This document shows, piece by piece, positions 11,597 through 62,483 of a stretch of DNA of 64,000 nucleotides (position 1 is the stretch's first letter; the number at the start of each line of letters is the position of its first letter). The stretch is from Leucoraja ocellata (Eukaryota), in contig JAWMAR010000024.1 in assembly GCA_036785375.1 (NCBI GenBank), forward strand, positions 5,766,001 through 5,830,000. Reading direction: 5' to 3'. The notes under the pieces were generated by a model. That model was not told the DNA's origin and ran no database searches. It saw only the letters and a program-made list of their open reading frames with translations. Position numbers and translations under genes: made by a program.

Positions 11597-12345
11597 ATAG
11601 AAACATAGAAACATAGAAATTAGGTGCAGGAGTAGGCCATTCGGCCCTTCGAGCCTGCACCGCCATTCAATATGATCATGGCTGATCATCCAACTCAGTA
11701 TCCCGTACCTGCCTTCTCTCCATACCCTCTGATCCCCTTAGCCACAAGGGCCACATCTAACTCCCTCTTAAATATAGCCAATGAACTGGCCTCGACTACC
11801 CTCTGCGGCAGAGAGTTCCAGAGTTTCACCACTCTCTGTGTGAAAAAAGTTCTTCTCATCTCGGTTTTAAAGGATTTCCCCCTTATCCTTAAGCTGTGAC
11901 CCCTTGTCCTGGACTTCCCCAACATCGGGAGCAATCTTCCTGCATCTAGCCTGTCCAACCCCTTAAGAATTTTGTAAGTTTCTATAAGATCCCCTCTCAA
12001 TCTCCTAAATTCTAGAGAGTATAAACCAAGTCTATCCAGTCTTTCTTCATAAGACAGTCCTGACATCCCAGGAATCAGTCTGGTGAACCTTCTCTGCACT
12101 CCCTCTATGGCAATAATGTCCTTCCTCAGATTTGGAGACCAAAACTGTACGCAATACTCCAGGTGTGGTCTCACCAAGACCCTGTACAACTGCAGTAGAA
12201 CCTCCCTGCTCCTATACTCAAATCCTTTTGCTATGAAAGCTAACATACCATTCGCTTTCTTCACTGCCTGCTGCACCTGCATGCCTACTTTCAATGACTG
12301 GTGTACCATGACACCCAGGTCTCGTTGCATCTCCCCTTTTCCTAG
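11597..12345 (-). mobile_element. Young 5'-truncated HER1/CR1 LINE (intact 211-aa ORF2 C-terminus)
   Basis: Stop-free ORF 11695..12330 (RDLGV...LYRVLVRPHLEYCVQFWSP...RRLRGDLIETYKIL...FFTQRVVKLWNSLP), 3' stem-loop and (ATAGAAAC)n tail. Confidence 0.95.
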
Positions 12346-12354
12346 TCGGCCTAG

Positions 12355-12800
12355 CGCAGCTGTACAAGTCGTTGGTGTGACTACACTTGGAGTACTGGTT
12401 GTGCAGTTCTGGTTGCCCAGCTATAGAAAGGAGGAAAGTTGGAAAAGATTGGATTCACCAGGCTGTTAGCTAGACTTATTGAAGTATATGAAAATCACGA
12501 GAGGCATGAATAAAGTGATCAGATCACCCACAGATCACCCACAATCATTTTCCCAGGTTAGAAGACTAGGAGCACGGACTTAAGATGAGAGGGAAGAGGG
12601 GAGACCTTAGTTGAGACCTTAGGGGCAACCTATCACTCAGAAAGTAGTACCAGCTGCCAAACAAAGCTGTAAAAACGGATACAATTCCAACTTTGAAAAG
12701 CCATTTGGACATATATGGATAGGAATGTTTTAGACAGATATGGACCAAATGCAGGCAAATGATATTAGCCCAGAATGCCTGTATAGCTCAATGGCACTAT
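12355..12800 (+). mobile_element. Older CR1 fragment, continuing 11560-11596 and interrupted by the young LINE
   Basis: agagtacaaaagctgggacatcatg | cagctgtacaagtcgttggt reads EYKSWDIM..QLYKSLV. Confidence 0.7.
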
Positions 12801-42500: not shown

Positions 42501-44099
42501 CTATCAAAGCCATTTATCATTCGGTTCTCATTTACTATTTTTAAGTGATGCAACACCGCCTGACTTCAATGTCACGTTGAATTCTGATTAAAAATGCTGG
42601 AATGCAACATTGTACTGCAGCGTGACCCCTCCTCTCCCCGCCCTGCCAGTACTCCTCCCCCACCTCACCCATCCCTGCTGTCTGGATACACATTTTATGC
42701 CCTTGAACATATTCAGTGAAGTTTCACAATTAAAATGATTTTGAGCAATGCCCTGGGATATCTTTACAATTCTACAGCTGATCTATGTTTCTATGTTTCT
42801 AATCACTTCTGTGCAAGGAACAAGGAAGAAGTGAAATTACTCTCTGAGTTAACAACTACGATTTCCAAGGAAGACTGGTACATATGACATTGTCCACTGA
42901 CTAAACTTTGCTTGGCTGCACCTAGTGAAAATCTGCCAAAAATCCTACATGATAAAATGCTTTTTAGAATGAGGAACCACAGGAATTATTGAGTTCCAAG
43001 TCAACTAGCCTGCCTCTGATGTTACAGGAAGAGGAGAATTTGGAAAGAACATTTAATAGTTCATCAAAAGAATAATATCAATGAAGAAAATTTTATATCA
43101 TTTTTATGTGCAGTACTATTTACGACACCCGTTCAGAAATTTAAACCTGAAGGACTATCATATGTAAAGTGTTCAGGGACTTATTTTTAAGAGTTATGAT
43201 TCGGTGGTATACAAATTATTCTTTGGAGATGACATTAAAAAATGTGTTAGGATTTTAATACACAATCAACCATGTTCATTTGACCCAGTGCTAAAATTCA
43301 ACCTGAGACCTCATTAACATGATTAATGTCACCGGTCAATGCTAACTCCAAGTTTAGTGCACAATCAATGGGCCTGATTTCATGAATGGGTGACATTAAG
43401 TGAAGCTATCTAGCACTGATTGAAAACGCCTGTTACAGGGGAATTGCTTTATGGCTGCAGCTGGTGTGCTAGTTATTTCAAGGGTTTAAAGAGTTTGTTG
43501 GAAATTCAGCTGCAAAGCTTTGAGATTGATTGTCTAAGATAGTTGTTTAGGCTTAGGTTGACGAGAAGCTGAGAAAGGGAGAACCTTTTGTTTTTCATAG
43601 AATGTCACGATTTCCTTCAGGTCAAACGTTAGTGAGAGGAAGCACCAAAGAAGGTCAATGTCAGGAGTCAAATTCCCAAGACATTGTTCAATATCCAAAA
43701 AACTAGTGATCTCATGGGCATGGCCAAGGTTGGTGTACCATCAATTATGGTAATGCAGATAGTGGTGGAATAAGCCACAGCAGAATGGTATAATGAAACT
43801 TTGGTAGTATTTTCCTATTTATATTTTAATGAGGTAGAGATAATCTCTTGTTGGATTCAGTTATTATTTTGCCACTTGTGTGGTACCAATGTTCCTGGTA
43901 TTTTATTAGTATATAAGAAACAAAGTATGCAGGTTAGGTTATATTATAGACATTCTGAAGTCCAACAGACACAAGTTTATTCTGTCCAACCCATCCACAC
44001 AAGACAACCTGGCAATTCCAGGTTGAAATCGAACATTCTCCAAATTTCTTCCAATGTGTTTGGAGACAAATATCTGCATGATATTCCAGATGTAGCCTT

Positions 44100-44232
44100 A
44101 ATCTTCTTCTTTCATATGGCGTGCCTAAAGTTGTAAGACAACTTGTTCTGTTTGATCTTCTGTTTGTGCACGCCAGGTTGATTGCATTCGTCGAAACAGG
44201 GTGGACCACGTGAAGGTTGCAATCTCCACCCC
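44100..44232 (-). mobile_element. Short ribozyme-headed retroposon (SIDE/SINE-like), copy 1
   Basis: Ribozyme head and (GAA)n tail, flanked by the direct repeat tgtagcctt (44091-44099 and 44233-44241). Homologous to 62349-62483. Confidence 0.85.
44180..44232 (-). ncRNA. Minimal HDV/CPEB3-like self-cleaving ribozyme (predicted), 53 nt
   Basis: Minus strand reads GGGGUGG A GAUUGCA ACC UUCACGU GGU CCACCCU GU UUCG A CGAA UGCAAUC. This gives P1 7 bp with G1.U, P2 7 bp, P3 ACC/GGU, L3 UUCACGU, vestigial P4 and J4/2 CGAA. Confidence 0.85.
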
Positions 44233-44724
44233 TGTAGCCTTTATAATGCCTTATAATACAGAAGCATAACTTTAGTGGTATCCTGTTCCTTTTGTGCAGT
44301 TTATTCGCTGATCCTCATATCTTGATTAGCTGAATGCTCAAAAATTTATTGTAGAGAAACACAAGGGTTTGCAATTCTTTCCTAAATACCAGACTCCTCG
44401 TACTGTTACTATGCCCAGAATTTATAGTTTCTCTGCCTTGATGTTTCAGCATCCACTGAGCTCTGCACTCTCAGAATTTTGTATGTCTCAATGAGATCAG
44501 CTCACATTCTTCTAAATTTCAGTAAATTTAGGTCATTTTTCTGCAATCTGTCCTCCTTGGCCTACACCCTCATTCTAGAGATCATTCTACTGAATCTACA
44601 TTCCATTGACTCTGGGGAAAGTATCCTTCCTTTGGCATGGAGGCCAAATCTCACTACCAAATTTCTATTTTCATGTTGTTCAGATTTTACTGCATGCAAG
44701 CACAGTTTACTGCATTTCCGGAGT

Positions 44725-62348: not shown

Positions 62349-62483
62349 TCTTCTTCTTGCGTATGGCGTGCACAGCCTAAAGTTGTAGGTCAACTTGTTC
62401 TATTTGATCTTGTTTGTGCAAGTCGGGTTGATTGCATTAGTGGAAACAGGGTGGACCACGTGAAGGTTGCAATCTCCCACTCC
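62349..62483 (-). mobile_element. Short ribozyme-headed retroposon (SIDE/SINE-like), copy 2
   Basis: Perfect 12-bp TSD agcagaggcact (62337-62348 and 62484-62495) and a (GAA)n tail. Inserted into a Rex1/Babar remnant. Confidence 0.88.
62430..62483 (-). ncRNA. Minimal HDV/CPEB3-like ribozyme (predicted), 54 nt
   Basis: GGAGUGG GA GAUUGCA ACC UUCACGU GGU CCACCCU GU UUCC A CUAA UGCAAUC. One A.C mismatch in P1; J4/2 CUAA keeps the catalytic C. Confidence 0.78.

Follow-up and report, generated by a model that had tools for sequence, protein, structure and literature searches.

The minus strand of the window (the whole 64,000-nt stretch of Leucoraja ocellata DNA analysed here) carries at 44100..44232 a decayed copy of a bipartite, non-autonomous retroposon, 133 nt long including its tail and two extra T residues. 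The first-pass annotation placed the first base of the element (G1, at 44232) directly against a target site duplication (TSD), and this is borne out by a 9-bp duplication found at 44233..44241, where it adjoins G1 on the 5' side of the element, and at 44091..44099 on its 3' side. A second copy, also on the minus strand, lies at 62349..62483; it belongs to a LINE-like subfamily with CUAA in J4/2 and is bounded by a 12-bp TSD (62495-62484 and 62348-62337).

The first 53 nt of the element (44180..44232, minus strand) are predicted from sequence, descriptor and covariation to fold as a minimal HDV-like ribozyme with a putative cut site just 5' of G1. Every part of the full nested double pseudoknot that had been drawn from 44232 is found in place, namely P1 with its G1.U wobble (44232-44226 with 44204-44198), P2 (44224-44218 with 44186-44180), a P3 of three pairs (44217-44215 with 44207-44205), L3 (44214-44208) and a candidate catalytic C at 44190 that opens J4/2. 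Between P1 and P2, where the family has GA, J1/2 is a single A in the window copy through a 1-nt deletion that removed one G. P4 had been described as reduced to a UUCG loop; the loop is present, and with U-UUCG-A between J1.1/4 and the catalytic C the stem itself amounts to one base pair at most.

Positions 44161..44232 (minus strand) derive from the 5' UTR of a LINE, with nt 1-72 of the element matching positions 5191-5119 of locus L061 at 90%, and positions 44100..44133 (minus strand) from a LINE 3' end comprising the last ORF codons, the TAG stop (44127-44125), a ~25-nt 3' UTR and a GAA tail. By these matches the short element consists of the terminal parts of a resident LINE whose interior has been lost, and the junction left by that deletion holds a small hairpin with 7-bp arms (44128..44144) that is absent from the LINE. 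The GAA/AAG repeat of the tail (44102..44111; 2-8 units across the family) is short in the window copy and is followed by TT. An 11-bp inverted repeat has its 5' arm at 44165..44175 and its 3' arm at 44124-44117, the latter shortened by a 5-nt deletion in the 3' part of this copy. In short copies the two arms form an 11-bp stem, bringing the 3' UTR together with the stretch that follows the ribozyme, and the z-score of the whole RNA is only -1.0; such pairing of 5' and 3' sequences as a general Vingi trait is unsupported, with 8 bp in L061 and only 6 bp in L172.

A regular-expression search found neither an A box nor a B box in the element, as the first-pass annotation had maintained, and no tRNA, 5S or 7SL head with A and B boxes was detected by that search or by Rfam. 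The missing boxes, the lack of an Rfam match and a head that is LINE 5' UTR together ruled out membership in the Pol III SINE class.

Copy number and boundaries of the short family

Members of the short family are about 137 nt long (~135 nt in the first estimate), and thousands of matches, TSDs and a LINE-type tail uphold the view that they form a multi-copy, non-autonomous retroposon. A DNA search of the genome gave 1,690 candidates, 40 of them scored, while exact 24-nt motifs gave 4,861 matches for the 3' part and 4,480 for the 5' part and reversed controls gave none. On one contig (C1) 16 of 54 matches to the 3' motif also carry the 5' motif, and on this basis the 3.4-Gb genome is roughly estimated to hold ~14,400 copies, assembly-wide and with duplicated loci counted. 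Near-identical pairs of loci with shared flanks on one contig, often inverted (L001/L002, L031/L032, L040/L043 and others), account for 12 of 100 sampled loci and reflect segmental duplication or haplotype retention, which inflates the copy counts.

Boundaries were read in the first 100 listed matches to the 3' motif (contigs C1 and C2), from which 12 were dropped as flank duplicates, leaving 88 loci that comprise 4 LINE ends and 84 short elements. These short copies were chosen by the 3' motif alone, and 76 of the 84 reach nt 1-4 (62 at nt 1), with three starting at nt 11-12 and five later, a clustering at G1 that agrees with the proposed 5' end. TSDs of at least 8 nt flank 53 of the 76 full-length copies; 48 of the 53 stop no more than 1 nt from G1, and 32 measure 11-12 nt. 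The same counts bear on whether the family is a fragment of a longer element, a possibility that the first-pass annotation had raised against itself: the family does consist of two LINE ends, but it has multiplied as a family in its own right. A mere fragment was rejected on the two-part build common to 76 of 84 short copies.

In 46 TSD-resolved copies the 5' junction has nothing extra in 38 and other letters in 8, and a single extra G in none. In L1 a capped template leaves an additional G at this junction; if the same rule applies here, the 46 junctions fit an uncapped template. They count against the idea that the same bipartite Vingi derivative owes its 5' end chiefly to a Pol II promoter lying within the first ~77 nt, the ribozyme acting as a backup or as a 5'-protecting fold in the manner of Pr77 of L1Tc/NARTc. 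Such a promoter would account equally well for 5' ends at G1, and the 77-nt head of the sister Ingi clade is described as promoter and ribozyme at once (PMC4035085); moreover, a P4-less fold with one Watson-Crick P1.1 pair may be slow. An internal promoter is nevertheless difficult to square with the missing extra G at all 46 resolved junctions, and Vingi-type heads keep the fold despite wide sequence change, which fits selection on RNA structure and not on a DNA motif. We consider it unlikely that an internal promoter is the main determinant.

The window insertion is common to two related organisms, contigs running into the element from both flanks in one and from one flank in the other, and no empty site was seen in the contigs of either; the insertion is therefore old. 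The family is also present in two runs presumed to be RNA, as contigs only, which show no start, strand or level.

The resident parent LINE and its clade

In two of the first 30 loci the 3' motif is preceded by coding sequence that closes with a Cys/His finger. The larger of the two stretches (L061) has a predicted ribozyme head 4.2 kb upstream, and with two later insertions subtracted it is a ~3.1-kb single-ORF LINE (family A) whose ATG lies ~110 nt past G1. Compared with family A LINEs, a typical short copy is 86-88% identical over nt 1-77 and 91-97% identical over its last 37-46 nt, the 3' part opening in the last codons of the ORF with the stop included; the ~20 nt between the two parts resemble, by eye, a short duplicated 5' UTR motif with a few further bases. 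The ends match family A alone (L061, L123, L127), with no match in the five loci compared from other Vingi-type families; a full-length LINE (L123) shares the G1 start and is flanked by TSDs of 11 bp. No unbroken copy of family A was seen: among the 150 RT matches listed at an identity of at least 60%, open frames reach 449 aa at most.

Several LINE copies carry an inverted 5' piece, as in twin priming (L096, L098, L106, L109, L111-L113, L117-L121). The piece is joined directly at nt 3-13 in L090, L096, L113, L120/121, L098/100 and L111, and at nt 64-67 or later in other inverted copies; in three independent cases the join at nt 64-67 falls on a GTGCAC palindrome. An insertion ~1.0 kb inside the L061 LINE looks like a DNA-transposon end, and the reverse complement of its start also interrupts the ribozyme of a short copy (L042). 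Separately, an open LINE frame of 915 aa was found at L126:2257-5001 (minus strand), and 3' fragments of that family lie in the window at 11695-12420 (minus strand); both are presumably from a CR1-type LINE.

The partner LINE had been taken for an RTE-type element, an attribution that finds no support, in that both ends of the short element match a resident RNase H-less Vingi-type LINE. Judged by domain content and tree position, it is most likely Vingi and not RTE. Fragments of family A encode APE and RT domains without RNase H, and P0001, an intact protein of 1,019 aa and the nearest such relative (77% identity over the RT query), combines APE, RT and a weak C-terminal zinc finger, again with no RNase H. 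RT trees of loci only, without named Vingi or RTE proteins and with an uncertain root, place the parent among RNase H-less elements in a 100/100 clade that is separate from, but near, the RNase H-bearing ones (L189, L190, L194 and L201), which are labelled Ingi-type by their domain content. Vingi has been described as a compact single-ORF sister of Ingi without RNase H (PMC13708176), and L172, a member of the same clade as the parent, has a 5' end that equals, by eye, that of Vingi-2_Gav in the supplement of PMC5786205; the name Vingi is applied because of these domain features and the L172 anchor.

RTE elements are reported to carry HDV-like ribozymes and to form bipartite derivatives (PMC5786205), and the trees contained no RTE sequence, no RTE reference having been found among the loci compared. 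An independent, ribozyme-headed SINE-like element moved by an RTE-type LINE would still have to explain why a single resident LINE family matches both of its ends at 85-97% identity, and why that family falls in the clade of L172, whose 5' end equals those of named Vingi elements. We regard this as highly improbable, and an RTE partner was set aside on the ends shared with that one resident LINE family. Three further Vingi-type lineages are present in the genome (L323, L324, L325, L327). A Vingi-type element with a GAA tail at L137:1-330 has a long G-rich 5' end with a 9-bp inverted repeat that misfits the HDV descriptor and possibly forms a larger fold.

The predicted fold and the proposed mode of spread

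An HDV descriptor run on the 64-kb window hit two sites, both of them copies of the short family, and on 20 shuffles (1.28 Mb) it hit none in 19 and two in the other. A chance fold was rejected on these shuffle controls together with covariation. The latter was assessed in seven Vingi-type heads, three from short copies and four from foreign LINEs, a set that is small, related and chosen for fit, in which both partners vary in 12 of 16 pairs and pairing holds in 95.5% of cells; none of 500 shuffles reaches 95.5%, and slid controls reach 33-48%. The G1.U pair, misplaced by the aligner, was excluded from the 16. The covariation in these alignments is support, not proof, for the fold. The C that comes first in J4/2, followed by NAA, is kept in 70 of 76 full-length copies, and this candidate for the catalytic residue is invariant in the seven aligned heads. 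The foreign LINE heads have a real P4, whereas the short family has at most one pair there. Among 12 loci of metagenome LINEs the fold lies upstream of the ORF in five (L159, L162, L163, L172 and L173), and only L172/173 rise above the control threshold (0 of 41 ORF segments). No upstream fold was found in L133, L134, L137, L139, L146, L180 or L210, some of which are short or 5'-truncated, and in L148/152 the fold is on an inverted piece.

The fold has weak points. P1.1 consists of one C-G pair and a U.U, and its G has the catalytic C as an alternative partner; rapid cleavage is reported for ribozymes in which one P1.1 pair is non-standard (PMC13635239), and minimal HDV-like ribozymes elsewhere are reported to be active without P4 (PMC10879173). 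The minimum-energy fold of the window copy, computed with a program that cannot model pseudoknots, extends P1 into P3. The HDV likeness seen in the first pass found no echo in an Rfam/HDV model search, which returned no match at cut-off in the window and none at E<=10 in 43800-44500. A near-typical copy (L055) scores 15.9 bits on the HDV-like Rfam model (E 0.53, cut-off 44), in a match that spans exactly the 54 nt of the predicted fold, and the short element stays below 35 bits on RF00622.

What distinguishes the subfamilies leaves the fold intact: in P1 an A-to-G change makes U.G of a U-A pair, J1/2 has a change of G to A, and in J4/2 the CUAA of the LINE becomes CGAA. Most of the remaining variation is at CpG sites. 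This pattern is relevant to the proposal that the ribozyme is a dead relic, full length being due to a short RNA supplied by a small number of master loci whose promoter is external. The family is decayed: median divergence from the column majority is 5.8%, the core is intact in only 15 of 76 full-length copies, the copies of the parent LINE are, as seen above, all broken, and the window insertion is in two related organisms too. Decay after insertion is to be expected, however, and is concentrated at CpG sites, while the changes that define subfamilies all preserve the fold. An external promoter would also leave an upstream leader, and no leader sequence shared among copies was seen upstream of G1. 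A relic of this kind seems to us quite improbable.

A mechanism can be sketched for the observed copy number, TSDs, tail, common ends, starts at G1 and covariation of the fold, and we hold it with good confidence. The short element would be a bipartite derivative of a Vingi LINE, copied in trans, with a predicted 53-nt ribozyme that cuts read-through RNA before G1. A host Pol II transcript would run through a copy; the ribozyme would cut at G1 and release an uncapped RNA; and the LINE protein would recognise the 3' end that this RNA has in common with its own and prime reverse transcription at a staggered nick, from which TSDs of 8-15 bp would arise. Since the RNA is so short, most copies would be full length and regain the whole ribozyme, and in this way the short form may have out-bred its parent.

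The CPEB3 ribozyme and other known systems

The likeness of L3 and the following GU to the mammalian CPEB3 ribozyme, pointed out in the first-pass annotation, goes beyond a common loop, with near-copies carried by sister Vingi-type families. A typical copy shares with CPEB3 (RF00622) a 7-bp P1 with G1.U, a 2-nt J1/2, a 7-bp P2, L3, the GU of J1.1/4 and the CGAA of J4/2, but the stem sequences of the short family differ and it gives no RF00622 match. On RF00622, where the cut-off is 35, L172/173 by contrast reaches 55.6 bits; its ribozyme agrees with the model consensus at 35 of the 37 leading bases, and the head is at the TSD boundary of a full LINE (L172:3617-6790). In the genome itself, 56 of 59 scored RF00622 matches are above the cut-off, the best at 64.7 bits, and at least 15 of the top 38 have a same-strand Vingi-type RT match 1.3-1.8 kb downstream. 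At L318 a 10-bp TSD adjoins G1, and L318/L319 group with L172 at 97/96 in the RT tree. Compensatory changes separate the CPEB3-like heads of the genome from CPEB3 itself.

The RF00622 cut-off is passed by at least two further ribozyme-headed families (L283-L297 and L318-L321; e.g. C89:5017878 and C28:7289884). One of them (family B) is Vingi-type and has decayed less: its open frames run to 753-784 aa, and G1 adjoins the TSD. Four loci (L283, L286, L292 and L297) have CPEB3-like heads without a LINE ORF of their own, and may be truncated copies or further short derivatives.

Named elements in the supplement of PMC5786205 have near-CPEB3 5' ends as well (Vingi-2_Gav, Vingi-4_Crp, Vingi-2_SPur, Vingi-1_BF and SINE2-1_AMi). 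Compared by eye with the Rfam consensus, Vingi-2_Gav agrees at 38 of 40 bases, then at 14 of 14; SINE2-1_AMi also shares the P4 stem of CPEB3. The HDV-like fold is reported to have only six invariant positions (PMC8256844), and near-identity beyond these makes convergence unlikely. Taken with the sequence matches, this suggests that the CPEB3 ribozyme is likely a domesticated Vingi 5' end, the direction and timing of the change being inferred. The broader view, in which ribozymes are a common Vingi 5' end that gave rise both to the P4-less family and, through a Vingi-2-type element or a SINE derived from one, to CPEB3, appears probable to us. The CPEB3 ribozyme has been described as mammal-only, in studies that report no non-mammalian outgroup, and a Vingi origin for it was not proposed in any title or abstract opening found in a literature search. 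If the origin is correct, Vingi heads supply that non-mammalian outgroup, and the close match of Vingi-type 5' ends makes the origin of CPEB3 directly testable.

The literature search found no publication title on the family in sharks or other cartilaginous fish and, in the excerpts it returned, no link between Vingi and ribozymes, part of which earlier work may cover. Vingi elements were earlier named Ingi, and prior mention is therefore possible. Kojima's ribozyme-bearing clades, in the excerpted text, are R1, R2, R4 and RTE, along with Ingi and LOA, with Vingi missing (PMC5786205). The short element is in effect a natural 137-nt minimal Vingi cassette, with a putatively self-processing head and ~45 nt of 3' end, and it bears on Vingi-based gene-insertion platforms, for which the excerpted text of PMC13708176 mentions a ribozyme only for R2. 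A P4-less HDV-like ribozyme would also gain an animal host and a likely job. The drz-Mtgn and theta ribozymes are likewise nested double pseudoknots without P4 and have the catalytic C first in J4/2, but they are tied to phages and tRNA genes (PMC10879173), whereas the heads described here belong to an animal retroposon and lie at its insertion boundary.

Bipartite non-autonomous LINEs are reported for RTE, Ingi, Vingi and R2, with NARTc and RIME (L1Tc/ingi), R2 SIDEs, Vingi-1_EE deletion derivatives, Bov-A and RTESINE as examples (PMC5786205; PMC4035085; PMC6765202). The hedgehog Vingi derivatives are internal deletions of the same kind as the short element. SINE2-1_AMi and SINE2-1_ACar are similarly short and contain a Vingi 5' end, but a tRNA head lies upstream of the Vingi part, whereas the short element has none and starts at G1 (PMC5786205). 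The likeness to SIDEs, as these are described, extends to the joined 5' and 3' ends of a resident LINE, the lack of an ORF, the TSDs and spread in trans; NARTc and R2 SIDEs moreover keep a 5' HDV-like ribozyme, which for NARTco has been shown to cleave. What sets the short element apart from these known SIDEs is a Vingi-type parent, a predicted ribozyme of 53-54 nt with almost no P4, and ~14,000 estimated copies. The short element is thus of a known kind, and what is less familiar is its almost P4-less ribozyme and its Vingi host clade.
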